A stretch of DNA of 55,489 nucleotides from Alphaproteobacteria bacterium (GCA_014238535.1 JABAAW010000006.1:1-55489), one strand, 5' to 3'. Counted from the first letter of the stretch, positions 7,506-23,290 are shown. Notes: generated by a model from the sequence alone, not told the origin. Made by a program: numbers and translations.

Positions 7506-7511
7506 TATTAT

Positions 7512-7583: not shown

Positions 7584-7626
7584 CATCTTTAGATTTTGCA
7601 TCTTTAGATTCTGCATTTTTAGATTC
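7582..7626. repeat. 15-bp tandem triplication starting at the tRNA-Trp 3' end
   Basis: tgcatctttagattt / tgcatctttagattc / tgcatttttagattc. Confidence 0.85.
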
Positions 7627-7655
7627 TGTGTATTTGATTTTTTGCGACAATAGTT

Positions 7656-8432
7656 ATGACGAAAGAGATTATCGGCAATTGGAAGATGAACGGCTTGTTG
7701 AGTTGCGAGGCGACTTTTTGCGAGATAATGTCTGGCTATGCGGAGTATGATTCGCTTTCTGCTTCTGCTGATAGTGATTGTGAAGGAGCGCGTTTGACTA
7801 TTTGCCCGCCGTCGACTTTGCTTTATAGGTTTTCGAGCCTTGCACGCGAGCGTGATTCGCGAGTTTTGCTAGGTGGTCAGTCTTGTCACCACGCTGCTGA
7901 AGGCAGTTTTACGGGGGATATTTCGGCTAGTATGCTGCACGATTGCGGAGCGCATAGAACGCTTTTAGGTCATGCTGAGAGGCGAGCTTCTGGCGAGAAC
8001 GATGGTATGATTTCGCGTCAGTTGCTAGCAGCCCTGCACTCGGGGCTTACGCCTATATTGTGCGTTGGCGAGGATATGGACGAGCGCAGTTCTGGTCGCA
8101 CGCGTATACGCCTTGAGGAACAGTTAGCGGGAGCGTTGCTTTTAGTGCGCGAGATGGGTATTAGTATGCCTTCGCTATTGATTGCCTACGAACCTTTGTG
8201 GGCTATAGGTAGCGGCGAGTTACCTAGCGTTGATGAGATTTCACAAGCTTTAGAGTGTATTATGGCTAGCGTTTATGATTTTTCAGAAGTTAGCGTTTTG
8301 TATGGCGGTTCTGTTACTAGTAAGAATGCGGCGGCGATTTTGGATTGTAGCGATGGTCTTCTGATTGGCAAGGCTAGTTTAGATTCGGACGAGCTGCTTT
8401 CGATAGTTGGCTTGTGTTATGATTCTGTTTAG
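7656..8432 (+). CDS. tpiA: Triosephosphate isomerase (divergent)
   Basis: IGNWKMNG, GSFTGDISA, LGHAERR, AYEPLWAIGSG and LYGGSV. Confidence 0.92.
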   Translation: MTKEIIGNWKMNGLLSCEATFCEIMSGYAEYDSLSASADSDCEGARLTICPPSTLLYRFSSLARERDSRVLLGGQSCHHAAEGSFTGDISASMLHDCGAHRTLLGHAERRASGENDGMISRQLLAALHSGLTPILCVGEDMDERSSGRTRIRLEEQLAGALLLVREMGISMPSLLIAYEPLWAIGSGELPSVDEISQALECIMASVYDFSEVSVLYGGSVTSKNAAAILDCSDGLLIGKASLDSDELLSIVGLCYDSV

Positions 8433-8440
8433 GTTTATCG

Positions 8441-9130
8441 ATGATTGAGAAGGCTTTACGCGTTGAATCTGCTTCGGTTAAGGATTTAGCGATGGAGTTG
8501 AGCGATAGTTTGCCTGAGGGTCCCTCGCTATCGTGTGCGCCGCGCAGCACTGAGTTTAGTTCATTAGAATCGTCTATCGGTCGTCAAGTTCGCTTGTTGC
8601 GTAAGGAGCGAGGATTGACGACGACCGAGTTATCGAAGCAAGTTAGCATTTCTGCGAGCATGCTTTCGCGCATTGAGAATGGCAATGGAGCGCCCTCGCT
8701 CGGCAGCTTACATTCTTTAGCTGCGGCATTGAATGTTCCGATTTCGCATTTTTTTTATAATTTTGAGCGCTCGTGGGATGTTTCGCATGTTAAGTCTGGC
8801 AAAGGAATGTTGGTTGAGCGTCGAGGCACGAAGGCGGGACACCTCTACCAGTTGCTTGGACACCAGATAGGTGATGATGTTGTAGTTGAGCCATTTTTGA
8901 TTACGATGACGACTGATTCGGAGCCGTTTCCGATATTCCAACACGCGGGCACGGAGTTTTTGTATATTTTGCGTGGTCAGTTAGTCTACAGACACGGTGA
9001 TAAGCGATTTTTGTTGAAGCGAGGCGATTCGCTTTTTTTCGATGCGAACGCGCCGCACGGGCCGCTAGAGCTGCGAGGTTTGCCACTACGCTTCCTTTCA
9101 GTTATTTCTTATCGTAAAGAATTGGAATGA
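8441..9130 (+). CDS. XRE-family HTH plus cupin transcriptional regulator
   Basis: IGRQVRLLRKERGLT..ELS..SMLSRIENG..PSL HTH; C-terminal cupin FQHAGTEFLYIL.G...GDSLFFDA..PHG. Confidence 0.85.
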   Translation: MIEKALRVESASVKDLAMELSDSLPEGPSLSCAPRSTEFSSLESSIGRQVRLLRKERGLTTTELSKQVSISASMLSRIENGNGAPSLGSLHSLAAALNVPISHFFYNFERSWDVSHVKSGKGMLVERRGTKAGHLYQLLGHQIGDDVVVEPFLITMTTDSEPFPIFQHAGTEFLYILRGQLVYRHGDKRFLLKRGDSLFFDANAPHGPLELRGLPLRFLSVISYRKELE

Positions 9131-9156
9131 GAACAACATACGACTAGATAGCGAAT

Positions 9157-10422
9157 ATGAAGAAAGGATTGAATAGCGAGCAAGGAATAGAAGTCGTCCC
9201 GAAGGGTCAGAGGTTACTGGTCATCACGACGCAGAATATTTTCAGCGAGAACGGCGCCCGCAGCCTTATGCGAGGCAAGGCACGCGCGCTTTCAGAACAG
9301 GGTGTTTCGGTTAAGTTTTTCTGCCTGCGCTTTGGTGGAGTTAGTAGTAAGCAGCGTGCTGCGGCTGGCGTTGAGGTTGCGGGAACAGGCACGAGCGAGG
9401 GCTGGCTTTTGCGCTTGGGAGTTCTTTCTGATATTCGTGCTACGCTACGCACCTACCGTCCTGATTGGGTATTGGTATCGGGAGCGTGGCTATACCTATG
9501 GGGTGACAAGCTTGGTAGGGCTATCTCGTTGAGCGGTGCCTGCATTGCGGTTGACCTACAGGGACCTGTTGATGAGATAGCGGAGTATCAACGAGTGCTT
9601 GGCTCGCGCTTTCTTGCGCGTTTATTGAGCCGCTGGCTAGGATGGGCTGAGCATCGTTTTTTATCGCGTTGGACGCACCTTGTTGAGACGATGTCTGGCA
9701 ACGCTGTTCGCTATTTGAGTAGACATCGCCCGCGCTACGATGGCTCTGTGTGTTTAGTAAAATGTGGCTTTAGCGAAGCCTTTACGGATGCGCGTTATGC
9801 TAGTGAACGAGTTGCTTGGCGCAAGAAGTTAGGCATAGGAGCAGATAAGCGAGCGGTTGTTTTTGCGGGCACTTTGAGCGGTTGGCAGAATAAGGAAGCG
9901 CTGTTTGCGTTTGCGAAGAAGCATAGTAGTAGCGCAGACAAGACGGAGGTGCACTTTTTTGTTCCGCGTGCGCACCACGCGGAGGTAGCGGCGTTGGGTT
10001 TGCATAACACACGCACGGGCTTTTTACCTAGCGCACAGCTACAATCTGCGTTATGCGCGTTTGACTACGGCTTGCTACCGCGCGAGGAGACGATGACGAA
10101 CTATTTTGCGTTTCCGCTCAAGGTAAGCGAGTATGCGAACGCGCGTTTAGGTATTTTGGTAACCTATCGAGAAATGGGTTGGATGGAGGGCTTGCTCGCG
10201 CGAACATGCATCGACATAGATGCCTTTCCGCTTAGCGAAAAGAAGCTAGCGAGCGCTCGCTTGCGCTACGAAGATTTACGCGAATTGGAGTTTTCGCACA
10301 TGGTAGTCGGATTAATAAAGTTATATGGGAAGATAAGAAGAGATTTAGTTTCGAGCAAGATGGAGGTACTGGCTCGAGGTACGCGTGGAGCGTTTCAGCA
10401 TGCTATCGATATTCGCCGATAA
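9157..10422 (+). CDS. GT-B fold glycosyltransferase (GT4-like)
   Basis: VVFAGTLSGWQN and FDYGLLPRE...N.FAFPLKVSEY; overlaps the start of pseB. Confidence 0.65.
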   Translation: MKKGLNSEQGIEVVPKGQRLLVITTQNIFSENGARSLMRGKARALSEQGVSVKFFCLRFGGVSSKQRAAAGVEVAGTGTSEGWLLRLGVLSDIRATLRTYRPDWVLVSGAWLYLWGDKLGRAISLSGACIAVDLQGPVDEIAEYQRVLGSRFLARLLSRWLGWAEHRFLSRWTHLVETMSGNAVRYLSRHRPRYDGSVCLVKCGFSEAFTDARYASERVAWRKKLGIGADKRAVVFAGTLSGWQNKEALFAFAKKHSSSADKTEVHFFVPRAHHAEVAALGLHNTRTGFLPSAQLQSALCAFDYGLLPREETMTNYFAFPLKVSEYANARLGILVTYREMGWMEGLLARTCIDIDAFPLSEKKLASARLRYEDLRELEFSHMVVGLIKLYGKIRRDLVSSKMEVLARGTRGAFQHAIDIRR

Positions 10423-11434
10423 GCAGATATTGATAACTGGCGGTAGCGGCTCTTTTGGGCATGCGTTTTTGCGCTATGTTCTAGCTGGAGGTCAGGCTAA
10501 GCGCGTGGTTATTTTTTCGCGCGATGAGTATAAGCAATTTTTGATGCAGCGTGAGTTTAGCGATAATCGTCTGCGATTTTTTCTAGGAGATGTGCGTGAT
10601 CATGATCGATTGAAGCGTGCGTTTAGGAATATAGACATAGTTATCCATGCGGCGGCTTTGAAGCAGGTTACGGCTGCGGAATATAACCCTGGCGAGTGTA
10701 TTTTGACGAATGTTACTGGTGCGGACAATGTTATCAAGGCAGCGCTTGATTGCGGAGTTGATCGAGTTCTTGCGCTTTCGACGGACAAGGCGGTTAATCC
10801 TATTAACCTTTATGGAGCTGCGAAGTTATGCGCGGACAAGCTTTTTGTTGCGGCGAATAACTTGAGCGGAGCACGAGGCACGCGATTTTCGATAGTTCGT
10901 TATGGCAATGTAGTAGGTTCTCGCGGTAGCGTGGTGCCGTATTTTATCGAGCAGTCTCGTAGCGGTAGCATACCGATTACGGACGAGCGCATGACTCGCT
11001 TTTGGATTTCGCTAGACGATAGCGTAAGTTTTGTTGCGCGTTGCCTATGTGATATGCGCGGAGGCGAGATATATGTCCCGAAGATTCCGTCGATGCGCAT
11101 AGTAGACTTGGCGCGCGCGATAGCACCTGAAGCGAAGTTGCGAATAATTGGCGTTAGGGCTGGGGAGAAGATACACGAGGTGCTGGTGCCGAATGAGGAG
11201 GCACGCGATACGCTTTCCTTTAGCGATTACTATATTATAGGTCCGCGCGTGTTGGAATCGACTAGCGATGGGCGACAGGATTCGTTGTCGCTTGTGACAC
11301 GAGGTAGTGCTAGCGGAGAGTCTGGAGTTCAACCTAGTAAGGTAGATGAGGACTTTGAATATTCGAGTGCGAACAACGAGGAATGGCTTAGCGAGTCTAG
11401 ACTGCGCGAGATAATAGATACGAGCGGGGGTTAG
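10400..11434 (+). CDS. pseB: UDP-N-acetylglucosamine 4,6-dehydratase (inverting)
   Basis: ITGGSGSFG, FSRDEYKQ, HAAALKQV..AEYNP.ECI.TN, LSTDKAVNPINLYGA.K, VRYGNVVGSRGSVVP and TDERMTRFWI. ATG 10400 preferred over 10385. Confidence 0.93.
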   Translation: MLSIFADKQILITGGSGSFGHAFLRYVLAGGQAKRVVIFSRDEYKQFLMQREFSDNRLRFFLGDVRDHDRLKRAFRNIDIVIHAAALKQVTAAEYNPGECILTNVTGADNVIKAALDCGVDRVLALSTDKAVNPINLYGAAKLCADKLFVAANNLSGARGTRFSIVRYGNVVGSRGSVVPYFIEQSRSGSIPITDERMTRFWISLDDSVSFVARCLCDMRGGEIYVPKIPSMRIVDLARAIAPEAKLRIIGVRAGEKIHEVLVPNEEARDTLSFSDYYIIGPRVLESTSDGRQDSLSLVTRGSASGESGVQPSKVDEDFEYSSANNEEWLSESRLREIIDTSGG

Positions 11435-11462
11435 GCAAGCTATAACATTATGCTAAAAAATT

Positions 11463-12785
11463 ATGGAAGACATCCCTGAAGTTATTCCGTATGCGCGCCA
11501 TAGTTTGCACGATGATGATATGCGAGCGGTTATGGAGGTGTTGAGAGAGGATTCTGCGAGCCAACGCTTGACGCAAGGGTTTAGAACCTCGCGACTAGAA
11601 GTTCTTATTAGGGAGTATACGACAGCCGAGCACGCGGTCGCCTGTTCGAGCGGTACGGCGGGTTTGCACGCGAGTCTATTTGCGTTAGGAGTTAGCACGA
11701 ATGATATAGTTATCACTTCTGGCATCAGTTTTTGTTCGACGGCGAATGTTGTGCGTCATTGCGGAGGCGTGCCGCTATTTGCGGACATAGACGAGGATGC
11801 GCTTGGTCTGTGTCCGCGCTCGGTACGCGAGGCTTTAGAATGGGCGAAGGAGAATGGCAAGCGTGTTAAGGCTGTGATAGTGGTTTCTATGGGCGGGGTT
11901 GCGCATGCGAGTGCGGAGTTGCGTGATTTATGCAAGGCGTATGGTTGTAGAATAGTCGAGGATGCGGCGCACACGCTTGGTGGTCGTTATGCAGACGGAA
12001 GAGCGGTTGGTTGTGGCGAGTATGCGGACATCACGGTTTTTTCGCTGCATGCGATTAAACCTATAACGAGTGGCGAGGGGGGGGTTGCTACTACCAACGA
12101 TGAAGAGCTTGCGCGAAGGATGCGTTTGTTTTGCAACCATGGTATCGAGCGCGATGTTAGGAGGTTTAAGGACGATGTTGCCCTGAGTGCTCGTGAAATG
12201 GCAGCGCAGAAGATGACGTACGGCTATCAGCACTATCAGATGCAGGTATTAGGTTTGAACTACCGCATGTCTGAGTTGCACGCGGCGTTGGGATGCTCGC
12301 AGATGCGGCGTATAGATAGCAAGCGAGATAGAAGGAAGGAGCTAGCTGAGCGCTACGATAGGTTGCTTGATGATATACTTATCGATGATGTTAATCCTCT
12401 ATCTAGCATTATAAAGCCGTTGCAGCGGAACTATCGAGAACGTTCGGCGCACCATCTGTATGTGACAACGATAGATTGGCATAGGCTTGCTATAAATCGT
12501 AAGAGATTCATGCAAACGCTTGCGAATACGGGTAAGGATGGCTACGGGATTTGTACGCAAGTCCACTACATTCCGATTTACGAACACCCATATTATCGTG
12601 AAGCGGCAAAGTTTACCGAACGAGCTTTATTTGAAGCCGTTAAGCTTCCTCGTAGTGCTGAATATGCTAAGCGTGCGCTTTCGCTACCGTTATTTACGGA
12701 CATGCCACTATCGGCGGTTGAGCGAGTAGTCGATGCGCTTAAGGAGCTCGTGGATAATTGCCTCAAGAGAGATTTTAAACTTTAA
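11463..12785 (+). CDS. pseC: UDP-4-amino-4,6-dideoxy-N-acetyl-beta-L-altrosamine transaminase (DegT family)
   Basis: IPYARHSL, LTQG, SSGTAGLH, VEDAAH, FSLHAIKPITSGEGG (PLP lysine), LGLNYRMSE and QVHYIP; follows pseB. Confidence 0.88.
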   Translation: MEDIPEVIPYARHSLHDDDMRAVMEVLREDSASQRLTQGFRTSRLEVLIREYTTAEHAVACSSGTAGLHASLFALGVSTNDIVITSGISFCSTANVVRHCGGVPLFADIDEDALGLCPRSVREALEWAKENGKRVKAVIVVSMGGVAHASAELRDLCKAYGCRIVEDAAHTLGGRYADGRAVGCGEYADITVFSLHAIKPITSGEGGVATTNDEELARRMRLFCNHGIERDVRRFKDDVALSAREMAAQKMTYGYQHYQMQVLGLNYRMSELHAALGCSQMRRIDSKRDRRKELAERYDRLLDDILIDDVNPLSSIIKPLQRNYRERSAHHLYVTTIDWHRLAINRKRFMQTLANTGKDGYGICTQVHYIPIYEHPYYREAAKFTERALFEAVKLPRSAEYAKRALSLPLFTDMPLSAVERVVDALKELVDNCLKRDFKL

Positions 12786-12810
12786 GTCAGGCTAGGTACT
12801 TTAGTCAATT

Positions 12811-13000
12811 TGCGTCTATGGCTATCTTAAAAGGGGCATGGGGCATATTGCCACGCACGAATGGGAAAGCTCGGTCTGCGTCTATGATTATTTAAAGGGG
12901 GGCGTGGGGGGATGAATCCCCCCGCAAAAAAAGAAAAATCTTTAGGCAATAAACGAACTATTAGCATGTGTTGCGCGTAGCGTATCTTTTTTTGCATAAG
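12811..13000 (-). repeat. Inverted copy of the hairpin plus module B repeat (left flank of the AT-rich gene)
   Basis: 12891-13000 is a diverged reverse complement of 14092-14194 and 13811-13928. 12811-12857 is a further degenerate duplicate (tgcgtctatg..ttaaa(a)gggg occurs twice). Confidence 0.8.
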
Positions 13001-13062
13001 CGCAAGGTAAATTACTATTAAATGAAAATACAACTATTTTATTTTTATGCTAAAATAGCAAT

Positions 13063-13671
13063 ATGAGTGAAGTAACCTTCGATAGTATTTTTGCAGAGAT
13101 TGAAGAACATGCAAAAGATATTCGCATAAAAGAATTAAAGGAAAATGAAGACAGAAAAATAGCATGGCGGGATAGTGACTTACGCTGGATAAAGGACATT
13201 AGCTCGCCAAAGCAGCTGAGTAAAATCCTTCGGTCATTCCTACTGAAGATGATAGTAAAGGGGAATTTCCAATCCATAGAGGAAAAAACACAATCCAGGA
13301 AACATATTATATTAATCAACGATATAAATTTTCAGATAAAAACGTCTACAATTTGGCAAGGAGAGAAAAAAAGGCACTATAAATTTCAACAAATAAGAAA
13401 AAACAATTACGAAATACTTATTTGCTTTGGCTTGTCACCTTATGAAGCGCATTGTTGGGTTATCAAAAAAGACTGCATTATCGACGATGACAAAGAATGG
13501 ATAGATGATAGAACCATAGGACAACACGGTAAAAATTCGCGATGGCTTATAATAGACCCAGACGCAGTCGCAGATTGGCTACAGCCGCTCGGTGGTGATT
13601 TGCATGAAGCCTTGGCGGTACTGAAAGAAGCTATTCTTACTAGCGATAGTAAGCACGGAATGTTCACATAG
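13063..13671 (+). CDS. AT-rich hypothetical protein, PD-(D/E)XK restriction-endonuclease-like with degenerate catalytic motif
   Basis: Visibly AT-rich. IN..NFQIKTSTIW...YKFQQIR..NY..LICFGLSP..AHCWVI..GQHG resembles a family of putative type II REase-like proteins (recalled, not searched). QIK replaces E-x-K. Confidence 0.5.
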   Translation: MSEVTFDSIFAEIEEHAKDIRIKELKENEDRKIAWRDSDLRWIKDISSPKQLSKILRSFLLKMIVKGNFQSIEEKTQSRKHIILINDINFQIKTSTIWQGEKKRHYKFQQIRKNNYEILICFGLSPYEAHCWVIKKDCIIDDDKEWIDDRTIGQHGKNSRWLIIDPDAVADWLQPLGGDLHEALAVLKEAILTSDSKHGMFT

Positions 13672-13689
13672 CTTACGCATGGAGTTAGC

Positions 13690-14528
13690 GAGGACTCCTC
13701 CCTTGTGCGGAGACTCGTCTCTCGTGCTTTTTCAACGCAAACGAGCCACCAAGCGTCCAAGCCTAAAACTCTTCTTTGTTTTTGCGGGGGGATTCTCCCC
13801 CCACTCCCCCCTATGTGAAAAAGATGCGCTTCGCGCAGTGCCTGCTAAAGATTATTTACCATCGAAAGATGCTTTCTTCTTTTTTGCGAGGGACGAGTCC
13901 CGTGAGACGAGTCTCCGCGCTCCCTTTATGTAGACTAACCAAAGTCTAACAGACTCTCCTTGCTACCTTGTGCTTGTGGCGAGAGGCGTCCGCCAGGCAA
14001 CGCAAACGAGCCACCAAGCACCCAAGCAACCAAGCAACCAAGACTAAAATTCTTCTTTGTTTTTGCGGGGGGATTCTCCCCCCACTCCCCCCTATGTGAA
14101 AAAGATGCGCTTCGCGCAACGCATGCTAAAGATTATCTAACATCGAAAGATTTTTCTTTTTTGCGAGGGACTCGTCCCTCGCACTCCCTTTAAATTAGTT
14201 AATCGTAACTAATAGAGTCTCTGTTTTTTTACGAAGGTTTAGTCCCTCACTCTCCCTTTATGTAGACTACCAAAGTCTAACAGACTCTCCTTACTACCTT
14301 GCTATTACCTCGCGTGCTTGTGGCGAGTGCGTCCGCCAGGCAACGCAAACGAGCAAACAAGCACCAAGCACCAAGCACCAAGCACCAAGCACCAAGCACC
14401 CAAGCCTAATTTTTTTGTTTTTCTTTTTTTTTGCGAGGACGAGTCTCCGCGCTCCCTTTAAATTAGTTAATCGTAACCAATAGAGTCTCTGTTTTTTACG
14501 AAAGATTAGTCTCTCGCGCTCCCTTTAA
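13690..14528. repeat. Modular repeat array: a recurring hairpin/C-rich junction separating re-used modules
   Basis: Module B (ctatgtgaaaaagatgcgcttcgcgca...) at 13811 and 14092. Module C-A (tatgtagacta..aaagtctaac...caacgcaaacgagc) at about 13927 and 14259. Module D (taaattagttaatcgtaac...) at about 14191 and 14459. Confidence 0.9.
14358..14399. repeat. Heptanucleotide microsatellite (CAAGCAC)6
   Basis: Six perfect copies; the equivalent positions at about 13750 and 14014 hold fewer, imperfect copies. Confidence 0.95.
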
Positions 14529-14639
14529 GTTCTTTCACTGCAATTACAAGCGCATTATGTAACAATAGAATTCTACCATGTGCATGACAATTTGCTAGCA
14601 ATATAAACCTAGAACAGCAAGACACAAACATAGGCAACT

Positions 14640-15722
14640 ATGAGCAAACAAGCTAAACTACATATCGATTTTTTTGCAGACCTACAAATAGCAAGCAAAT
14701 CTAACCCAACCGCAATAGGATTAGGTCACGCACGGCGCATTCTAATCCTAGCAGAAAGCCTACAGCAAAACAATAGCCAGACAACCGAACTACGCTGCTT
14801 TTTTGACGAACCAAACCATGCAAGGCGGTTATTTCCACACACACAACTGCCATTTTTACATTGGTACGACACGAGTAGTAAGCACACCCCCCGCGATTTA
14901 CTGGTAGTAGATTCCTACCGCCTCACCGAGTTGCCCGCCCCTATTCGCAATAGCTATCGTCACATCGCTTGTTTTCACGATGACAAGAGCGCACCGTCCT
15001 ATGCGACAATTGCGATTTGCCCGAATGTCTCTGCACCGCCACCTTCGACCGATACACGCGGAGTGCATCACCTTACAGGAGCGATGTATTTTCCTTTTGA
15101 CCTTAGCCTAACCGATGAAGCATTATCACCGCGTGCGCAGGCGAGGGATGCGTTTCGCGTTATGCTCTGGCTTGGAGGAGATGAGGATGGCAGTAATGTT
15201 GCCCCTTTATTGAACGTTTTACTATCGTCGCCAGTCTTGTCGAATTTTGTGTTTGAGGTTATCCTCTCGCCGCTACTTACCTGTGATCGTGATATTTCGA
15301 GCGATTTGCGCTTGCACTTATCGTCTCCGCAAGTGCGCCTGCATCGAGATATTACTGCGATGTCGCGCTTATTTTCGTTTTGTGGCACCTATGTTGGAGG
15401 CGCAGGAGTTTCGAGTTGCGAGGCTGCGTTGCTTGGCTTGCGCTTGGTTCTTTGTGCGCTTGCAGACAACCAACGAGGCAATGCTAATTCTCTTGCACGA
15501 GCGGGTGCGATTTTATTTGACATTTCGCACCCACAGAGCCTATTGCTTGCATTTTTCTCGCTCCTTGAGGAGAGTCAAGATAGGCAACCTCTTAACTCTA
15601 CAGCACTTGCCTCTACGGCACTTGCCTCTACGGAGCGTGCCTCTAAGGCGGTTAGAGAATTGGGTTTTGACCGTCATGGTGCGTCTCGCCTCGCGAGCGC
15701 GCTTTTGCGTATTATCACCTGA
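14640..15722 (+). CDS. pseG: UDP-2,4-diacetamido-2,4,6-trideoxy-beta-L-altropyranose hydrolase-like (PseG/SpsG)
   Basis: IGLGHARR...LA, LLVVDSY, GGAGVSSCEAALLG, LADNQ..NA and D.HGASR; lies within the pse cluster. Confidence 0.75.
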   Translation: MSKQAKLHIDFFADLQIASKSNPTAIGLGHARRILILAESLQQNNSQTTELRCFFDEPNHARRLFPHTQLPFLHWYDTSSKHTPRDLLVVDSYRLTELPAPIRNSYRHIACFHDDKSAPSYATIAICPNVSAPPPSTDTRGVHHLTGAMYFPFDLSLTDEALSPRAQARDAFRVMLWLGGDEDGSNVAPLLNVLLSSPVLSNFVFEVILSPLLTCDRDISSDLRLHLSSPQVRLHRDITAMSRLFSFCGTYVGGAGVSSCEAALLGLRLVLCALADNQRGNANSLARAGAILFDISHPQSLLLAFFSLLEESQDRQPLNSTALASTALASTERASKAVRELGFDRHGASRLASALLRIIT

Positions 15723-16810
15723 TGTCAGATTTTTTTAGCGAGCGTTTATGTTCGAGCAGCGGTCGTCCTATCGTTGTTGCGGAGGTTTCGACGAACCACC
15801 GAGGCTCGTTATCTGAGGCGTGCGCGTTGATCTGCGCTGCTGCGCGAGCTGGAGCGGACGCGGTTAAGTTTCAGAGTTATGCTGCGCTCGACCTCACGCT
15901 TCGTTCTTCTCGTAAGGAGTTTATGCTTGAGCACCCTTTGTGGCGAGGTCGCAGTTTATTTTCGCTTTACAGCGAGGGCAGCCTTCCGTTGAGTTGGCAC
16001 GAGCGTTTATGGAGCGAGGCTTCTCGTTGCGGTATAGCGATATTTGCGTCGGTTTTTTCGCCTGAGCGCCTTGCGTTACTTGAATCGTTAATAGTATCGC
16101 CAGCCTACAAGATTGCTTCAGCCGAGTTAGTTGACTTGGAGTTGATCGGTTCGGTTGCGCGCACGGGTCGGGCGGTTATTATATCGACTGGCATGGGTAG
16201 TCACGAAGAGATAGAGCGAGCTGTTTCGGCGGTGCGAGCGGCGGGTAACGATCGCCTTGTGCTACTGCATTGCTTGAGTGCCTATCCGGCGCATAGCGAT
16301 GCGATGAACCTGCGTGCGCTTACGACTTTGGCGCGCGAGTTTGGCTGTGCGGTAGGCTTATCGGACCACACGCGAGATGCGGATGCGGCGCGACTTGCGG
16401 TTGCGCTTGGGGCGAGCGTGATTGAGAAGCACTTCACGCTTGAGCGGCGCGAGGGCGACTTGGACGCGGCTTTTTCGCTTACCGAGACTGAGTTTTCTGC
16501 TTTCAGTAGGGCGATCAGGGATGCGTGGTGCGCTATGGGTGATGGCGAGTTGGAGGTTGGAGATAGCGAGCGCGCCTCGCTACCTTTCAGACGGAGTTTA
16601 TATGTTGTCAAGGCTATGCGCGAGGGCGATGCTTTCACGGGCGAGAACATCCGCTCTATCCGCCCGAGCGCGGGTCTTGCGCCTTATCACTATCGGCGAG
16701 TTTTACGCGCCTGTGCGGCTTGTGACATTTCAGCGGGCGTGCCGCTAGAGGAGTCGATGCTGGACGAGTCACGAGCGCGAGTAAGTAGCCAGCAGGATTC
16801 AAGCCGATAA
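15722..16810 (+). CDS. pseI: Pseudaminic acid synthase (NeuB family, C-terminal SAF domain)
   Basis: VAEVSTNH.GSL, AVKFQSY, AYKIASAE, IISTGM, LLHC.SAYP, GLSDHT, IEKHFTL, D.AFSL, FRRSLY and SIRP..GL. Confidence 0.9.
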   Translation: MSDFFSERLCSSSGRPIVVAEVSTNHRGSLSEACALICAAARAGADAVKFQSYAALDLTLRSSRKEFMLEHPLWRGRSLFSLYSEGSLPLSWHERLWSEASRCGIAIFASVFSPERLALLESLIVSPAYKIASAELVDLELIGSVARTGRAVIISTGMGSHEEIERAVSAVRAAGNDRLVLLHCLSAYPAHSDAMNLRALTTLAREFGCAVGLSDHTRDADAARLAVALGASVIEKHFTLERREGDLDAAFSLTETEFSAFSRAIRDAWCAMGDGELEVGDSERASLPFRRSLYVVKAMREGDAFTGENIRSIRPSAGLAPYHYRRVLRACAACDISAGVPLEESMLDESRARVSSQQDSSR

Positions 16811-17628
16811 TGCCTAGTGAGGATTTTGCGTGCGCTGTGCGTATGAGTTCTGAGTTCCGCGAGCTTGGAGCGAGTATGGATTTTAGCGCTACTGAGTTTC
16901 GTTGTTTGGCGGTAATCCTTGCGCGAGGAGGTAGCGAGCGCATCAGGGATAAGAACATAGTTGATTTTTTTGGCAAGCCGTTATTGGGTTATTCGCTTGA
17001 GCTTGCGGATGCGGCGGATATTTTCACGCGTGTGCATGTATCGACTGATTGCGAGCGTATCGCGAGCGTTGCGCGAGCCTTTGGTCATGCGACGGACTTT
17101 GCGCGTCCTAGTGGTCTTAGCGATGCTCGAACTGGTGTCTGGTCGGTCGTGCGTTCGGTATTGGCTGAGTATAGCAGGCGTGGAGAGGAGTTTGACTATG
17201 TGTGCTTGCTATCGGCTTGTGCGCCGTTGTTGCGTCGGGAGGACTTACGCGGTGGAATGGCATATTTCTTATCGTATTTTAGGCGAGGTGAATGTATCCA
17301 GCTCATGGCTTGTTGCGAGTATCTAGCCTCGCCTTTGCGTGCGCTTGGCTTCAGCGAGACTGGAATGCTCGAGCCGTTGGACGCGTCGTCTTTTGCTGAG
17401 TCTCGCTCGCAGGATTTACGCGCTTATGTTATGGATACGGGCGCCTTTGCCTATCGTGCGAGTAGTGACTTGTTGAGCGGTGAGTATGTTGCTACGAATG
17501 GCGAGGTTGCGATGTCGCGCTTGGCGCGTGCTTACATTTTACCGCGTGCGCGGGCTGTAGACATCAACGAGCCCAGCGATTTAGAGTTCGCTAAGCTATT
17601 GTATCGGGCGCAAGAAATACGGGAGTAA
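16810..17628 (+). CDS. pseF: Pseudaminic acid cytidylyltransferase (NeuA family); start may be later
   Basis: LAVILARGGSERIRDKNI..F.GKPL, VSTD, RSQDL...DTGAF and AVDINEPSD. Confidence 0.85.
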   Translation: MPSEDFACAVRMSSEFRELGASMDFSATEFRCLAVILARGGSERIRDKNIVDFFGKPLLGYSLELADAADIFTRVHVSTDCERIASVARAFGHATDFARPSGLSDARTGVWSVVRSVLAEYSRRGEEFDYVCLLSACAPLLRREDLRGGMAYFLSYFRRGECIQLMACCEYLASPLRALGFSETGMLEPLDASSFAESRSQDLRAYVMDTGAFAYRASSDLLSGEYVATNGEVAMSRLARAYILPRARAVDINEPSDLEFAKLLYRAQEIRE

Positions 17629-17648
17629 ACTGCAAAACGCATCCCACC

Positions 17649-18722
17649 TTACAAGCCCCCTTCTTGCCTCTTGCTCGAGCTGATCACCGCAGCGAGTGCC
17701 TTTTCGACAAGGTTGTCGCTAGCCCTACCCTCTTTAACGAAACCACTCGGCTGATGGTCGGTCGCAACATCGAGGATTTTTTGCAGTAGCACTTGCCTAT
17801 CTTGCTCCGTTGTAGCCGCCTTGCTTAAGTTTTCGTATGACTCTAGCGTGATCGCACGCTGGTCGCAGACGATAGCATTATGATTATTGACAGCGTAGAA
17901 ACGCAAGCCACTAAAGAATGTAGCGAGCAGGGTTATCGATAGTAGCGTGTTGACAGAAAATATGGTTTCCAATGCTAGATGAAAATACAGATAATCCCTA
18001 ATAGGTATATGTGGCACCATCGTAGTACTTCCTCGCTGACAATAAGCTAAAAAAGCTAATGAAATCACGATAGCCAACGAGCATGCTAAAAAAGCATAAG
18101 AAGTTTTTTTATAACCTTTTGATTTGTTTCTAAAAGTAACTGCCTGTTCATTTAAATTTCCTACCGTTTTCTTTTTACTCTTTATCCGCTCTTCGATTTC
18201 AGTAAAAAAACTTACTGCATCATCTATTCTGTATATTAACCTTCCAAGAAAATTAATTTTCACCTCCTCAGGCATATTATCTACCGCTACAGATATATTT
18301 ATCTGCAGCTGCTCTAAAAATCCATGTATTTTAATGTTTATTAAAAATAATTCCGCCTGATTGATTTCTTTATAAATAATTGAATCTGTGTTACCTACTG
18401 TTTCTCTAATGAATTCAATAAACTTACGCAAATCATTTTCTGCTTTTACGAATAATTTTTTATTATTTGGATTACTGGTAATAACAGTAATAACATTTGG
18501 CTTAATAACGCATATAAATTTTATTCTATATTCTAATTTTCTTAAATTATTAAAGAATTTAATAGCAGTATCAAATCCATCAAGTGCATTTGTATAATCG
18601 TGCTGTTGTTTTGCTACTGTTTTAGAAGCGTAATCAGCAATTATTTTATCGGCAGCCTGTATGCCACTAGCTGGTTGCACCACCTCTTCAGATTCTTTAG
18701 AAGTTTTTTCGTCTTCAGCCAT
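17649..18722 (-). CDS. Hypothetical 2-TM membrane protein, tandem paralogue 1
   Basis: 357 aa; shares MAEDEKTSK, YRIKFIC, TVGNL, two TM segments and RFYA..HNA.VCDQRA.TL.SY...LQKILD.ATDHQPSGF.KE with its two neighbours. Confidence 0.85.
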   Translation of the reverse strand: MAEDEKTSKESEEVVQPASGIQAADKIIADYASKTVAKQQHDYTNALDGFDTAIKFFNNLRKLEYRIKFICVIKPNVITVITSNPNNKKLFVKAENDLRKFIEFIRETVGNTDSIIYKEINQAELFLINIKIHGFLEQLQINISVAVDNMPEEVKINFLGRLIYRIDDAVSFFTEIEERIKSKKKTVGNLNEQAVTFRNKSKGYKKTSYAFLACSLAIVISLAFLAYCQRGSTTMVPHIPIRDYLYFHLALETIFSVNTLLSITLLATFFSGLRFYAVNNHNAIVCDQRAITLESYENLSKAATTEQDRQVLLQKILDVATDHQPSGFVKEGRASDNLVEKALAAVISSSKRQEGGL

Positions 18723-18758
18723 CGTTCCCTCTCCTCCTAGCCGTTTACGCTCACGGGC

Positions 18759-18787
18759 TTACTAGCATGTAATACAAACTCATACAA
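18759..18787 (-). promoter_or_regulatory. Putative sigma70 promoter of paralogue 1
   Basis: TTGTAT-N17-TAGTAA with TGC just before the -10; same architecture upstream of all three paralogues; GGAGGAG RBS downstream. Confidence 0.45.
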
Positions 18788-18874
18788 ATTCATGCAACCA
18801 AATACCATTATGGTTCACCTAGACTATGTAAGTTATAGACTAGGATTCATCAACCCAAAAACAAGGAATAGCGA

Positions 18875-19939
18875 CTAACGAGGTTTACCTCTAAGCAATA
18901 TGACTAGCTCTGCCAATGACTTACCTATAAGGCTATCGCCATCCTTATCTTCTTTAGAGAAACCGCTCGGCTGATGGTCGGTCGCCGCATCGAGGATTTT
19001 TTGCAATACCAACAGCCTTTCTTCGCCCGCCGTAGCCGAGTTGCGTAAGGCTTTATAAGATTTTAGCGTATTGGCGCGTTGGTCGCAGACGACGGCGTTA
19101 TGCTTGTTCGCCGCATAGAAGCGGATAGAGGCAAATAGTATGACCAGCAGACTTACGGACAGCAACACCCTAAGAGAAAATATAGTCTTCAGCGCGATGT
19201 AGAAGTAGATATATTCCTTCGCCTCCTTCGCTTCGCTAAGCGGAACTTCAGAGAAGTAATTTGTTAATACAAAGATTGCGCAAACAAATAGGAGAAAAAT
19301 TCCACCCGCTCCTACTAAAAACCAGACTGCATTCTTTTTATATTTTTTTGAAGCAGCTGTAAAATTTTTTGCCTGCGCATCTAAATTACCTACCGTTTCT
19401 ACTTCTTTTAGCCTTTCTTTAATTGCTCCAATTATCTGCGCTATAGATGTATTCGTTAGATTAATATGCTCCTCTAATTTTTCAGCATCAGTTTCTTTAG
19501 CTTCATTTTTTTTAAATTTTATATTTTTTTGCAATAGTTGCAAGAAAGTATCTATTAGACTTTGTGTCCTTGCTAATTCATCTTTATTTGCTTTACTATA
19601 AAAAATTGCCTTTTCATGTAATTCTACTTCGAAAAATGCAATTAATCTTATCAAAAAATTCTTTGTGGTTGCATATATTTCTACTCTCCCACTAGCCGCA
19701 GTTAGGATATTATGATTGAAGGCGCATATAAATTTTATTTGGTAGTTTATTTTTTTACGGTCGTCAAAATTTTTAATCTTATCATTGACATTATCGAGCG
19801 TTGCAGCAAATTTATTTTGTTGCTGAATTGCCCTATTGTTATAACCAAAGTCATCAATTATTTCATCGACAGCCAGCATGCCACGAGTTGTTTTTGCCTC
19901 TGGCTCAGCGTCTTTAGAAGTTTCTTTCTCTTCAGCCAT
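18875..19939 (-). CDS. Hypothetical 2-TM membrane protein, tandem paralogue 2
   Basis: 354 aa; same conserved N- and C-terminal motifs, divergent AT-rich middle. Confidence 0.85.
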   Translation of the reverse strand: MAEEKETSKDAEPEAKTTRGMLAVDEIIDDFGYNNRAIQQQNKFAATLDNVNDKIKNFDDRKKINYQIKFICAFNHNILTAASGRVEIYATTKNFLIRLIAFFEVELHEKAIFYSKANKDELARTQSLIDTFLQLLQKNIKFKKNEAKETDAEKLEEHINLTNTSIAQIIGAIKERLKEVETVGNLDAQAKNFTAASKKYKKNAVWFLVGAGGIFLLFVCAIFVLTNYFSEVPLSEAKEAKEYIYFYIALKTIFSLRVLLSVSLLVILFASIRFYAANKHNAVVCDQRANTLKSYKALRNSATAGEERLLVLQKILDAATDHQPSGFSKEDKDGDSLIGKSLAELVILLRGKPR

Positions 19940-19977
19940 CGTCTGCTCTCCTCGTAGTCACGCCCTGCATCTAGGAT

Positions 19978-20006
19978 TTGATAGCAGATAACGCAGTCTT
20001 ATACAA
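19978..20006 (-). promoter_or_regulatory. Putative sigma70 promoter of paralogue 2
   Basis: TTGTAT-N17-TATCAA; the upstream region 19937-20023 is nearly identical to 21093-21183. Confidence 0.45.
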
Positions 20007-20042
20007 GTTTATGCAACCAAATACCATTAATGCACCAAGCCG

Positions 20043-21095
20043 CTACTTATTGCTAACGCTAATCAAAGTGGCTAATGCCTTTTCTATAGGGCTATCGCCC
20101 ACCTTATCCTCTTTGGTGAAACCACTAGGCTGATGGTCGGTCGCCGCGTCGAGGATTTTTTGTAACACTAGATGCTTTTCGGTATCGGTCGTAGCCGCAT
20201 TACGCAAGGATTGGTATGACCTAAGCGTATTGGCACGCTGGTCGCAGACGACGGCGTTATGGTAGCTCGAGGCGTAAAAACGAATAGAGGCAAATAGCAT
20301 GACGAGTAAGGTCACTGATAGTAGCGTCCTTGCAGAAAATATAGTTTTTAGCGCGATGTAGAAGTAGATATACTCCTTTGCCTTTTCCACTTCAGTAATT
20401 GTAGCATCAAAGTAGAAGTATGGAAGACAAGCGATTACAGCGACGATAATGACCGTACCTGCCAAGAAGCATCGCGCATTATATTTATATTTTTTTGAAT
20501 TTTTTTCAGAAAAATCTGCCTGCTCATTTAAATCCCCGACCGTTTCTTGCTCTTTTTCTCTTCTGATTTCTTTTTCTCTTATTCTTTTTCTAACGTCACG
20601 AAATATAATTTCTATAACATCTTTTGTTCTATCGGTATTTGATTGTAATTCTTCAGCATTTCCTCTCCCATATTCTATATTATCTTCTAATAGTTGTAAT
20701 AAAAAATTTATTTTTTCGCGTATTTTTGATAATTCATCATAATCTATTTCTTTATAAAAATTCGGTCTTTCATGGATTACATCACGAAAAAAATCAATTA
20801 ACCTACTAAACTTATATTGGGCGTCTGCATATCGTCCTTTAGTAATACTGACTGCGGCAAGGACATCGGGTTTGATAGCGCATATAAATTTTATTCTATA
20901 TTGTATTTTTTCATTTTCTTTTAGATGTTTAATTAACCCATCGATATGAGCTAGCGTTTCAGCAAATTTATTTTTCTGCTTAATTGCCCTATTGATAGAT
21001 TCGAAGTCAGCGATTATTTTATCGACCGCCTGCATGCCGACAGCTGTTTTTGCCTCTGCTTCAGTCTCTTTAGAAGTTTTTTCGTCTTCAGCCAT
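20043..21095 (-). CDS. Hypothetical 2-TM membrane protein, tandem paralogue 3
   Basis: 350 aa; same conserved motifs as paralogues 1 and 2. Confidence 0.85.
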   Translation of the reverse strand: MAEDEKTSKETEAEAKTAVGMQAVDKIIADFESINRAIKQKNKFAETLAHIDGLIKHLKENEKIQYRIKFICAIKPDVLAAVSITKGRYADAQYKFSRLIDFFRDVIHERPNFYKEIDYDELSKIREKINFLLQLLEDNIEYGRGNAEELQSNTDRTKDVIEIIFRDVRKRIREKEIRREKEQETVGDLNEQADFSEKNSKKYKYNARCFLAGTVIIVAVIACLPYFYFDATITEVEKAKEYIYFYIALKTIFSARTLLSVTLLVMLFASIRFYASSYHNAVVCDQRANTLRSYQSLRNAATTDTEKHLVLQKILDAATDHQPSGFTKEDKVGDSPIEKALATLISVSNK

Positions 21096-21137
21096 CGTCT
21101 GCTCTCCTCATAGCCATTCACGCCCTGCGTCTAGGAT

Positions 21138-21166
21138 TTGATAGCAGATAACGCAGTCTTATACAA
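21138..21166 (-). promoter_or_regulatory. Putative sigma70 promoter of paralogue 3
   Basis: TTGTAT-N17-TATCAA, identical to 19978-20006. Confidence 0.45.
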
Positions 21167-21301
21167 GTTTATGCAACCAAATAGCATCAACCATAGTCTG
21201 CACTTGACCGCTTTAGTAAAGCGTTTTACAATCGCTTGCCAAATCTAGTAAACACGCTAACGAGTAGCCAAGAACGAGTAAAACAAGGCGACTATAGGTT
21301 A

Positions 21302-22165
21302 ATGAGCAACACGAAGAATAGCTGGCAGCAGCTTGGGGCGGTCTCGCCGGTTGAGCTACAAGATACCCGCCTATACCTGCAGTATGCGCTACAATGGGTG
21401 CATCGCGCGGCGCTATGCACGCCGCCAGCCGAGCAGCAGGCGAGCACGGAAGAGATGGAGGAGACGCACGCACCGCTCTATTGGGATGCCGAGGCGATCG
21501 GTTTTTTCAGCAAACCCTATAAGGATGGTAAGCGCGTAGGGCTGACGCTAGACGAAGGCGTAGCGATGCTCACCTTTGGCGCGGCGAAGGCGGCGAGTGG
21601 CGGCGAACAACAACAGCAGCTATTCGAGCTTGATGGGCATACAGACGCTGAGGCGCGCCTATGGGTACGCGAGCAGATCGAAGATAGTGCATACGATACG
21701 ACAGAGTACAACGACCCCTCCGAACTACCCGCGCACCCCTTGGCTGAGGGCGCACGCTACAAGCTGAGCGAGTTAGGAGGTAGCATAACCGAGATAGCAC
21801 GCTGGCTATCGAACGCGCACCTATTGCTCGAAGACCTACGCCAAGCGCACGAACGGCTACTATGCACGCTCGAATACTTCGACCTCAGGCTCTACCACGC
21901 GCGTACAAAATCCGACAGCAGACGCCTACTACTAGGCATGTCGCTAGGCGATAGCTTGCACCCGCAACCTTACTTTTATGTGCTCGCGCAACCAGAATGG
22001 CAAGAAGTGCCGACTTTTGCAAACAACCTCTGTGGCTTGCACAAGAAGCAACCTACGACCATAATCCTTTTGAGCGAGAAGATAGTAAACCTAGTGCACC
22101 AGCACAGCCTCACACACGACTTTTTACAGCAAGCGATAAAACTACCGCTTGGGGGGACGAGGTAG
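21302..22165 (+). CDS. Conserved hypothetical protein (possibly DUF5996-like)
   Basis: Long ORF; RLYLQYALQ, ELPAHP, IARW.SNA and LGMSLGD....PYFYV recall an uncharacterised family. ATG 21302 preferred. Confidence 0.55.
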   Translation: MSNTKNSWQQLGAVSPVELQDTRLYLQYALQWVHRAALCTPPAEQQASTEEMEETHAPLYWDAEAIGFFSKPYKDGKRVGLTLDEGVAMLTFGAAKAASGGEQQQQLFELDGHTDAEARLWVREQIEDSAYDTTEYNDPSELPAHPLAEGARYKLSELGGSITEIARWLSNAHLLLEDLRQAHERLLCTLEYFDLRLYHARTKSDSRRLLLGMSLGDSLHPQPYFYVLAQPEWQEVPTFANNLCGLHKKQPTTIILLSEKIVNLVHQHSLTHDFLQQAIKLPLGGTR

Positions 22166-22177
22166 GAGATTAGTTAA

Positions 22178-23290
22178 TTACGCAGCCCTGCTATCGCTCG
22201 CGCCGAAATTTGCATTATTGCCATCTGGATTTGGCTTTTTACCTTTAAGACGCCAGACATAGCTGATTATTTCTGCGACCGCTTGGTAGTGTTCGGGTAG
22301 CACTTCCTCGCCGATATCGCAAGCAGCGTATATTGTACGCGCGAGCGCTGGGTTTGCGACCAACGGGATATTTGCATTGCGCGCAAGGCGTATTATTTCT
22401 TCGGCTAGGTAATCGACCCCCTTTGCGATTACCTTTGGTGCTTCCATTTGCCCGTCGTCATATTTTATGGCGACGGCATAGTGGGTTGGGTTTGTAATGA
22501 CGACATCGGCTTCTGGGATTGCCTGCACGATGCGCATCCTTGCGCGTTCGCTACGAATTTTTCTTATGCGTGCTTTTATTTGCGGATCGCCTTCGATTTG
22601 CTTGAACTCGTCTAGCACCTCCTGCCTTGTCATGCGCAACCTTTTTCTATGGCGCGCGCGCTGGAAGAATAGGTCTAGCACAGCGATGATGGCAAGCACG
22701 GCTAGTATCGACGCCATCATACCGACGAGTAGACTTTGCGTTTGCGTTAGCACTAGGTTTATGCTTGTCAGCATAAAATCCTCGATGTTTGGCAGTTGCG
22801 CTATCAGGAAGATAGCGCCGACGCCGCCGACGAGTATCAGTTTGATGATACCCTTGGTAAACTCGACGATACTCTCAAGCGAGAACAACCTCTTGAAGCC
22901 GGCTAGTGGCGAGATTTTATTGAGTTTTGGCTGAATTTTTTTAGGTGTGAATACGGGACCTATCTGTACGAACGATGCGACGATTGCGATTACGAAGATA
23001 GCGATAGCGGGTACTAGCAAGGTAACGCCTAACCCGCGCAGCACTTGCGCGAACAGGATTCCTAGTTCTTTTTCTGCAAAGACTATGTGTCCTGCTTTTT
23101 CAAGCAGCCCTTGCAACAGAGCTGTCATGCCGCGTGCTATAGAGCTACCGCCGGCGGCGATGATAATTGTTATCGTAAGTAGCAATAGGAAATGGTTGAC
23201 CTCGCGCGATAGTGGTACTTGTCCTTCGCCTTCTGCGTCCCTTAATCGTTTCGGAGTCGGTTCTTCGGTTTTTTGTGCGTCGTCAGCCAT
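22178..23290 (-). CDS. flhB: Flagellar export protein FlhB
   Basis: KTEEPTPKRL, EGDPQIKARIR and the autocleavage motif ITNPTHYAVA. Confidence 0.96.
   Translation of the reverse strand: MADDAQKTEEPTPKRLRDAEGEGQVPLSREVNHFLLLLTITIIIAAGGSSIARGMTALLQGLLEKAGHIVFAEKELGILFAQVLRGLGVTLLVPAIAIFVIAIVASFVQIGPVFTPKKIQPKLNKISPLAGFKRLFSLESIVEFTKGIIKLILVGGVGAIFLIAQLPNIEDFMLTSINLVLTQTQSLLVGMMASILAVLAIIAVLDLFFQRARHRKRLRMTRQEVLDEFKQIEGDPQIKARIRKIRSERARMRIVQAIPEADVVITNPTHYAVAIKYDDGQMEAPKVIAKGVDYLAEEIIRLARNANIPLVANPALARTIYAACDIGEEVLPEHYQAVAEIISYVWRLKGKKPNPDGNNANFGASDSRAA

Follow-up and report, generated by a model that had tools for sequence, protein, structure and literature searches.

What are three adjacent genes for two-helix membrane proteins, conserved in one half and divergent in the other, doing beside the flagellar genes of an uncultured marine alphaproteobacterium with a small genome? 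The genes lie in tandem on the minus strand of a 55,489-nt stretch of DNA from Alphaproteobacteria bacterium (GCA_014238535.1, JABAAW010000006.1:1-55489), the whole of which was analysed and is referred to below as the window. An original prediction made from the sequence alone had read this trio as a candidate diversifying sensor-effector array, in which a variable soluble recognition domain is joined to a conserved membrane module. Profile comparison makes the trio a divergent and expanded branch of the DUF6161 superfamily, which has no name beyond that of a domain of unknown function (DUF). As to function, we tentatively favour, at somewhat less than even probability, the view that each protein works by itself in the membrane, in defence or exclusion, and senses through a cytoplasmic domain. 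We do so because the family is sporadically spread, low in GC and without a partner gene, has relatives that are embedded in restriction-modification (R-M) operons or adjoin abortive infection (Abi) genes, occurs in prophages and shows hyperdivergent alleles. For this particular locus, the putative link to defence comes from association in distant relatives.

Architecture of the tandem trio

Three open reading frames (ORFs) of 350–357 codons, each with two transmembrane (TM) helices in a hydropathy scan, make up the array, as had been predicted. Nucleotide coordinates of the TM helices were computed from residue numbers. GC3 denotes GC content at third codon positions.

17649–18722, minus strand: copy A, ORF of 357 aa, the most divergent of the trio and its longest branch in the tree
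18875–19939, minus strand: copy B, ORF of 354 aa, paralogue of copy C with 51% identity
20043–21095, minus strand: copy C, ORF of 350 aa, all-helical in the AlphaFold2 model (N-domain at residues ~1–200, TM1, short loop, TM2, conserved C-terminal module)
20496–21095, minus strand: N-domain of copy C (residues 1–200), AT-rich, helical and predicted to be cytoplasmic, GC 0.29–0.31, GC3 0.21–0.23
~19340–19939 (copy B) and 18123–18722 (copy A), minus strand: N-domain in the other copies
20415–20471, minus strand: TM1 of copy C (residues 209–227; Kyte-Doolittle, 19-residue window, peaks 2.4–2.8)
19265–19321 (copy B) and 18039–18095 (copy A), minus strand: TM1 in the other copies (hydropathy scan)
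20289–20345, minus strand: TM2 of copy C (residues 251–269; hydropathy scan)
19130–19186 (copy B) and 17889–17945 (copy A), minus strand: TM2 in the other copies (hydropathy scan)
20106–20288, minus strand: C-module of copy C (residues 270–330, RFY..HNAVVCDQRANTL...LQKILDAATDHQPSGF.K), conserved, juxtamembrane and homologous to DUF6161

Protein identity was 51% between copies C and B and 43% between C and A; values of 38% and 45% were also obtained for copy A against the other two. Within the three-way alignment, the predicted anchors Y.IKFIC (Y65, I67–C71) and TVG.L (T186–G188 and L190) are invariant, as is the C-terminal motif HNA.VCDQRA.TL...LQKILD.ATDHQPSGF.KE. The claim of shared DNA was borne out by the 17-mer GGCTGATGGTCGGTCGC, which occurs three times, once per copy, and in none of 100 shuffles of the window. 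Conservation of the first 30 or so residues proved patchier than described: the extreme N-terminus is conserved, but identity among the three copies is uneven over the first 25 columns, ranging from 40% to 64%.

Four to five lysine or arginine residues fall within the 15 residues before TM1, and the loop between the two TM helices is ~20–30 residues long. This K/R-rich stretch suggests an N-in/C-in topology, in which both soluble parts would be cytoplasmic and only the ~20–30-residue loop periplasmic. The AlphaFold2 model of copy C, built from a 129-sequence alignment, is all-helical (pLDDT 88.5), with a very long helix (residues 147–228) that runs into TM1 and another (255–292) that continues out of TM2 into the juxtamembrane helix.

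Relationship to DUF6161

An exhaustive profile search recovered 1848 representatives of clusters formed at 50% identity (E ≤ 1e-3), of which 302 matched at E ≤ 1e-10 and 17 at E ≤ 1e-30; a word-indexed search yielded only six proteins. For most of these matches, the alignment covers the last two-thirds of the profile. In the 129-sequence alignment the near-invariant columns, start methionine aside, fall almost entirely in the TM and C-terminal half, which is also the only half shared with DUF6161. Both observations support the predicted architecture of a variable soluble helical domain on a conserved two-TM module.

Copy C scored 26.4 bits (E = 5.8e-6) against DUF6161 (PF19658) in hmmscan, with a gathering cut-off of 27, and reached 28 bits, over that cut-off, in a six-frame genome search. 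Copies A and B had no Pfam match at E ≤ 1, DUF6161 included. Three of 50 sampled family members matched DUF6161 at E ≤ 0.001, one of them above the cut-off. Alignment of the family profile (129 sequences) with eight DUF6161 proteins taken from genomes gave an hhalign probability of 96.7% (E = 3.3e-10) over 152 columns spanning TM1, TM2 and the C-terminal helices, and one locus, in genome G266, was matched by both profiles. The hairpin and the juxtamembrane C-terminal helices of DUF6161 are thus homologous to those of the trio's family. The original prediction could not name the family; its members do lie mostly outside Pfam, and none of ten that were looked up carried a name. The three proteins are not orphans.

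The N-domains tell a different story at the two levels. Those of the trio's clade align with the N-domains of typical family members (hhalign 96.6%, 178 columns), but not with those of DUF6161 proper (probability 0.1%, no match). At superfamily level, one membrane module is therefore joined to different N-domains. Within the trio's family the N-domain is a single homologous, fast-diverging domain not swapped for unrelated ones, since the N-domains of the trio are homologous to one another and to those of typical members. Signature motifs also differ: RHN..VN.HR.NAL.T(Y/F) in typical members, HNA(V/I)(V/I)CDQRANTL in the genus, HNA.VCDQRANTL in the trio and HL..DA.ER.TMA.TY in DUF6161 proper. 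The DUF6161 genes examined encode ~370–510 aa and often lie inside R-M operons, compared with 350–357 aa for the trio. A PDB sequence search with the family profile returned coiled-coil and designed helical proteins only, and these were not retained as relatives.

Distribution and origin of the triplication

The source assembly measures 1.39 Mb (81.6% complete) and carries a fourth, distant copy on another contig; genome sizes in the genus range from 1.1 to 2.0 Mb. Matches were present in four of the six other genomes of the genus (1–5 each), the genus maximum being four genes per genome, as two of the five matches in genome G004 are pieces of one gene. None of four genomes from the other family of the order had a match. 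Across the class, 18 of 401 sampled genomes matched at E ≤ 1e-5 and, in a second sample, 3 of 401 at E ≤ 1e-15, with a single match in each listed genome outside the genus. As few class genomes match and those outside the genus have one match each, the family is sporadic in distribution.

Members from the genus formed one clade (100/99) holding several deep paralogue lineages in a 27-row maximum-likelihood tree. The trio and a metagenomic protein, P0004, grouped together (100/99) as sister to the flhB-adjacent copy of genome G005 plus metagenomic P0006. By this placement, the trio is a lineage-specific tandem triplication, within an expansion across the genus, that is later than the split from the G005 lineage. 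A scan of genome contigs with a seven-member alignment found one locus only, in a metagenome-assembled genome titled 'Alphaproteobacteria bacterium'. Sequencing runs containing the sequence are labelled marine metagenome and carry no host information, and there were no RNA datasets among the listed runs.

Defence genes around members of the wider family

Confirmed metagenomic relatives numbered 317, and from them 85 loci (five viral, 80 metagenomic) were collected. The idea of a conserved partner gene was rejected: the 242 neighbours within three genes fell into 235 BLAST clusters. With no such partner, the protein probably acts alone. Within two genes, 29 of 150 neighbours, at 20 of 68 loci, matched PADLOC models at E ≤ 1e-6, and we judged 16 of the 20 loci to be strong and specific. 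The matches include R-M components (type I HsdS/HsdR, type ISP/IIG enzymes and a type III Mod and Res pair), a PLD-helicase with a DUF1156 methylase, SIR2, AbiD, an OLD/AriA-like ATPase and PDC-M30/S15/S43/S60 candidates. Further neighbours recognised through Pfam are Mrr_cat, NgoFVII, RexA, Schlafen AlbA_2, PIN and Fic, along with integrases, transposases and phage portal and terminase genes. Several family genes come directly after the defence gene on its strand, overlapping it or at a short distance, with spacings of −31 after HsdS, −25 after type ISP enzymes and −33 after AbiD.

DUF6161 proper occurs in a type I R-M operon ordered hsdM-hsdS-DUF6161-(3 ORFs)-hsdR (genome G429, L154 = C2:24000-43999, positions 5434–16501), whose HsdM matches 3khk at 6.5e-195 and whose HsdR matches EcoR124 HsdR at 8e-29. 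Other DUF6161 genes adjoin Abi_alpha, a RelA_SpoT protein or a downstream Schlafen AlbA_2/HATPase_c_4 protein. One preprint presents a DUF6161 family of Pseudomonadota as a high-scoring ESM-DefenseFinder candidate without known defence features, unvalidated, and gives PADLOC system components as 0.65% of RefSeq proteins, a system-level figure (bioRxiv 10.1101/2025.01.08.631966).

Mobile elements also carry family members. The single plasmid match is Vibrio tubiashii pFP31 (NZ_CP117031.1, L052, 183414–204298), where the gene stands in an array of short, one-directional genes separated by ~110–500-nt gaps and encoding Hhe, a HEPN-associated protein, a 5'-nucleotidase, the family member, GIY-YIG, AbiH and AAA/P-loop NTPases; this looks like a defence cassette array. 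Phage or defence genes lie within two genes at three of the five viral-contig loci (terminase and portal; portal and an integrase-like protein; RexA). On IMGVR_UViG_2571042916_000002 (L071), a family member at 8001–8804 sits between the terminase large subunit and a lambda-type portal gene, a moron-like position.

Several known systems offer parallels. PrrC, of the prr locus, and RloC are cases of R-M-embedded abortive infection, and DUF6161 proper likewise sits between hsdS and hsdR. Typical family members trail HsdS, type ISP and AbiD genes closely. These arrangements would suit a latent effector tied to a restriction system. Both PrrC and RloC belong to the soluble anticodon nucleases and carry ATPase domains, whereas the trio's family consists of helical membrane proteins without a recognised enzymatic domain, and the trio is not beside an R-M system. 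SLATT effectors of CBASS-like systems and lambda RexB also combine a small helical membrane module with a cytoplasmic domain; the wider family is, like them, defence-associated, and at one viral locus RexA lies two genes from the family member. However, no SLATT or other two-TM effector model of Pfam matched the three copies at E ≤ 1 or the seven-member alignment at E ≤ 0.1. The trio also differs in having no Pfam/PADLOC match to such systems, linked signal-generating enzyme or conserved partner, and the conserved part of its family includes a ~80-aa cytoplasmic helical module after TM2.

Divergent alleles and possible mosaic copies

Between the sister species G003 and G004, family copies at two syntenic loci were far more divergent than their surroundings. 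Five flanking genes at the FtsK locus share 91–93% amino acid identity (synonymous divergence, dS, 0.15–0.24) and the PPDK flank at the second locus 94% (dS 0.23), while the family copies at both loci share only 49% (dS 1.06–1.29, dN 0.42). The copies compared were:

L012:6364-7488 (G003) and L016:9554-10654 (G004)
L014:8979-10202 (G003) and L053:1549-2658 (G004)

Nucleotide identity drops from ~0.92–0.97 to 0.62–0.76 across the family gene and its GC trough. As dS itself is raised ~4–9-fold over the flanks, and 5–9-fold where these are 91–93% identical, the pattern is not merely one of faster protein evolution: the alleles predate the species split or were replaced from divergent sources. Hyperdivergent alleles within conserved flanks fit the pattern of loci under diversifying or frequency-dependent selection. 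One caveat attaches to the FtsK-locus comparison, since the G004 copy there (G004:C2:1061652-1062652, L016:9554-10654) is covered by two abutting profile pieces (21–297 and 296–343) in different frames, which suggests a frameshift near its 3' end. Between the window and G005, family copies share 34–39% identity, with saturated dS, compared with 76–81% for FlhB/FliR.

Among the three copies of the window, TM2 and the C-terminal part have dS of 1.06–1.35 and a ratio of non-synonymous to synonymous divergence (dN/dS) of 0.12–0.21, so that this part is, on pairwise estimates, kept by purifying selection on the protein. The same dS values led us to reject ongoing or recent gene conversion as an explanation for the conserved C-terminus. 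In the first 40 codons dS is lower (0.33–0.73, against 0.68–1.97 elsewhere), for which reason the 5' end is either regulatorily constrained or homogenised now and then. Pairwise dN/dS in the N-domain core is 0.32–0.73, a rough estimate given saturated dS and extreme composition, and is best read as relaxed constraint or mixed site classes. The predicted diversification is therefore seen as hyperdivergence of syntenic copies between sister species, but not as positive selection.

The original prediction also proposed that conserved flanks allow domain swapping. Two hybrids lend this weak support. The N-domain of P0004 (1188-bp contig) is 54–70% identical to copy B per 25-column block, against 18–41% to A and C, and its TM1 and loop are 50–67% identical to copy A, against 19–36% to copy B. 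In run X4, one contig of depth 2.1 (side 30) connects position 18170 with 19412 through 12 added letters, each of the two points lying shortly ahead of TM1, and no contig of that run covers 18309–19313. Both therefore show the same hybrid, the N-domain of B joined to the C-module of A. Unequal crossing-over between copies is a lead only, as both hybrids are possibly assembly chimeras. The N-domains, being homologous, were not traded for unrelated domains, and the C-terminal DNA has not been homogenised. A contig from run X2 that skips copy C was rejected as a deletion: the joint falls at a 54-nt identical upstream repeat and is read as assembly across it, because copy C is present, with the same depth, on another contig. 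Joints in the multi-strain run X3 fall at conserved 5' parts or repeats and are ambiguous in the same way.

Base composition and upstream leaders

GC content is 0.23–0.30 across the parts coding for the N-domains, compared with a window average of 0.47. Over aligned codons 1 to ~220, GC3 is mostly 0.05–0.35, with values of 0.46 and 0.55 in two windows of 20 codons, and it is mostly 0.45–0.70 in the C-terminal ~100 codons; in the window's other genes it is mostly 0.42–0.57 (range 0.37–0.63). The AT-rich core and host-like C-terminus of the original prediction were thus recovered in both scans, but low GC is not special to the core of the trio. All 22 alphaproteobacterial family genes examined lie 9–28 GC points under their flanks, and at 52 of 54 metagenomic or viral loci the family gene is likewise lower in GC.

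A related stretch of ~95 nt precedes each of the three starts and ends in GAGGAGAG followed by ATG:

21096–21190, minus strand: upstream leader or promoter region of copy C, with Shine-Dalgarno sequence GAGGAGAG (alignment)
19940–20042, minus strand: upstream leader or promoter region of copy B (alignment)
18723–18811, minus strand: upstream leader or promoter region of copy A, same Shine-Dalgarno sequence, 64% identity to the copy B region over 73 nt

Ahead of copy C, the 73-nt stretch at 21118–21190 is 96% identical to its counterpart ahead of copy B (19958–20030), while the coding DNA reaches only ~70–80%. This stretch may be an operator or leader, or a recent conversion tract; in both copies it contains an imperfect inverted repeat (CTGCGT...ACGCAG in copy C). 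On the alignments, each copy is a unit of its own with its own conserved leader. An Rfam scan of positions 17000–22300 gave no match at E ≤ 1, and promoter and terminator scans found no excess of sites over shuffled sequence (13 and 3 sites, where 10.8 and 3.7 were expected).

Low GC raises the alternative of a membrane gene that is selfish or comes from a phage, for instance a moron, an addiction module or the remnant of a holin-like or superinfection-exclusion gene, and that has spread horizontally and decays neutrally, N-domain divergence being relaxed constraint under AT-biased mutation. GC below the flanks at nearly all loci, copies on five viral contigs, integrases, transposases or a resolvase within two genes at five metagenome loci, the dN/dS of the core and the apparently frameshifted G004 copy all speak for it. 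All three copies in the window are nevertheless intact, with conserved leaders and Shine-Dalgarno sequences; the C-module is clearly under purifying selection, the N-domain fold is predicted confidently and is homologous across the family, and no phage or mobile-element gene flanks the trio. Neutral decay would moreover leave the 4–9-fold excess of dS over the flanks unexplained. We regard this explanation as improbable.

Gene neighbourhood and evidence against a defence role

A number of observations weigh against a defence or exclusion role for the trio, beginning with its own surroundings. Its neighbours are pseudaminic-acid genes (NeuB family, cytidylyltransferase, PseB-like and PseC-like), an ORF of unknown function and flhB, fliR and fliQ. 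The trio lies in neither a defence island nor a mobile element, its flanks hold no gene of phage or mobile-element type, and the nearest tRNA genes are ~10 kb away. In PADLOC-DB 2.0, copies A and B had no match and copy C only DrmA (E 0.021, 10.6 bits). The NCBIfam scan of the trio gave noise only. None of 50,697 phage records matched the three protein queries, and among 72,556 plasmid records one matched, the same for all three. Positive selection was not detected by pairwise dN/dS, with all values below 1 at saturated dS and extreme composition. The enrichment of defence genes in the wider family has no matched control from the same metagenomes, and PADLOC models also match generic ATPases and methylases.

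The only defence-like gene near the trio is an ORF at 13063–13671 (plus strand) within the pseudaminic-acid cluster, ~4 kb away. It is AT-rich (GC 0.37, GC3 0.37) and matches the PADLOC REase_II model (type II restriction; E 2.3e-19), with no Pfam or PDB sequence match, and may have been inserted from a foreign source. An ORF of 309 aa at 21236–22165 (plus strand), which separates the trio from flhB, went unmatched in Pfam, NCBIfam, PADLOC and PDB; it occupies the same place in G005 (57% identity) and has ~40% homologues in G003 (L012:11781-12668) and G004 (L016:14655-15566).

Neighbours of 19 other alphaproteobacterial copies are likewise mostly housekeeping genes (hisA/hisF, purQ with MCP, FtsK, PGI/UvrA, PPDK/GlnA). 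A PADLOC scan of neighbours of these copies and the trio gave matches for 13 of 121, a set that is not a matched control for the 20 of 68 wider-family loci, or the reverse. Nine of the 13 are read as generic (ABC1 kinases, FtsK, UvrA, ABC-type ATPases and an HTH regulator), and the only clear R-M neighbour is in genome G189 (type III methylase, plus PDC-S16). The check for defence-island or prophage neighbourhoods that the original prediction had proposed gave PADLOC matches at 20 of 68 wider-family loci, but mostly housekeeping genes around the alphaproteobacterial copies. The anti-phage link is seen as association in distant relatives, whereas the trio itself has housekeeping neighbours and no PADLOC assignment.

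Paralogues hold syntenic places between species of the genus, and such stable synteny looks more like resident genes than a fast-turnover defence island. This introduces a second alternative, a domesticated resident envelope protein with a cytoplasm-facing helical scaffold on a TM hairpin, whose paralogues would be sub-functionalised housekeeping proteins in membrane organisation, stress response, division, or flagellar or glycosylation assembly. Copies do stand between core genes (pseF/flhB; ABC1 kinase/FtsK; PGI/UvrA; PPDK/GlnA; pth/ilvD), and their places are kept between species amid flanks of 90–97% identity. In three genomes a copy adjoins FtsK. The flhB-adjacent place is common to the window and G005, which has a single copy there, and the pseF-adjacent place is common with G003, where one copy adjoins a Sel1-repeat gene, pseF and neuB. 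A weak structural likeness to ESCRT-III/Snf7 hairpins and FliJ (Z ~8–9) points the same way. Housekeeping proteins, on the other hand, would not show 49% identity amid flanks of 91–94% with dS 4–9 times higher. Nor was the family found in four of four other-family genomes or 383 of 401 class genomes; one copy (G004) appears frameshifted near its 3' end, and neighbour genes vary from copy to copy. We consider a resident envelope role unlikely, though less so than the other two alternatives.

Fold comparison gave no hint at a mechanism, a further point against the defence reading. The best Foldseek match of the copy C model in the PDB had E 0.25. The VIA fold search peaked at Z 9.3 with generic helical hairpins, under the ~13 expected by chance for helical proteins, a limit that applies equally to the likeness invoked for an envelope role. 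The hairpins of ESCRT-III/Snf7/CHMP, WXG100 and FliJ share a long antiparallel hairpin with model residues ~184–300 (Z 8–9.3, below that chance level; rmsd 1.5–4; 79–117 residues aligned), but the hairpin of the trio holds both TM helices, and there is no sequence similarity.

Two neighbourhoods in G003 contain genes for repeat proteins. RTX-repeat giants (3206–6685 and 13975–17721 of L013, C1:933000-952999; 1160 and 1249 aa) flank one family copy, and a Sel1-repeat protein (L012:16656-17387) follows another. They hint at a host-associated or surface-active lifestyle of the genus and bear on a third alternative, host interaction or interbacterial competition, in which the trio would encode variable antigens, effectors or immunity proteins against a membrane-targeting toxin and arrays would supply specificities. 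Such a role, also raised in the original prediction, would suit the small genomes (1.39 Mb at 81.6% completeness here, 1.1–2.0 Mb in the genus), the RTX- and Sel1-repeat neighbours in G003, the hypervariable alleles and tandem paralogues typical of immunity-gene arrays, and one weak VIA row named 'Immunity protein' (4nsr_B, Z 8.2). However, the predicted topology would expose only the inter-TM loop, which argues against a surface antigen and a host-interaction role. No secretion signal was found, and no toxin or secretion-system gene beside the trio. The sole link to a type VI secretion system is one VasI among 150 wider-family neighbours, and the samples are labelled marine metagenome without host information. 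We hold this explanation to be quite improbable.

Elsewhere in the window, a MurD-like ORF overlaps a MraY-like ORF by ~430 nt when ORFs are listed from their first start (40141–42087 and 41658–42737, minus strand), and the true MurD start probably lies further downstream.

Proposed mode of action and significance

Under the tentatively favoured reading, each copy would act as a one-gene inner-membrane phage defence or exclusion system, a function suggested by the associations of its relatives. The fast-evolving cytoplasmic N-domain may recognise a phage-derived cue, or a neighbouring R-M enzyme may hold it in check; its rapid evolution would follow from meeting phage products. The conserved DUF6161-type membrane module would execute the response, most plausibly by disturbing the membrane. 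Paralogues would supply different specificities, and alleles would turn over through replacement and occasional unequal crossing-over between copies.

A bolder version, which we think unlikely though worth stating, is that of a new and widespread one-gene anti-phage family, of at least 1848 clusters, in which a hypervariable cytoplasmic helical sensor is joined to a DUF6161-type membrane executioner. The array of the genus would then be a set of resident receptor-like paralogues, hyperdiverse by replacement and unequal crossing-over, and an analogue of the fast-evolving, clustered immune receptors in eukaryotes.

If the defence reading is true, a large and mostly unannotated single-gene defence family has been missed by current tools. 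Its compact design of a sensor and a membrane module would be easy to test, and the expansion in the genus would provide a natural specificity series. Should that reading be wrong, the trio would still belong to a widespread membrane protein of an uncharacterised family, with its membrane module in common with DUF6161. Allelic hyperdivergence between near-identical flanks singles out loci on which selection is unusual, and it does so even in a marine genome of small size.

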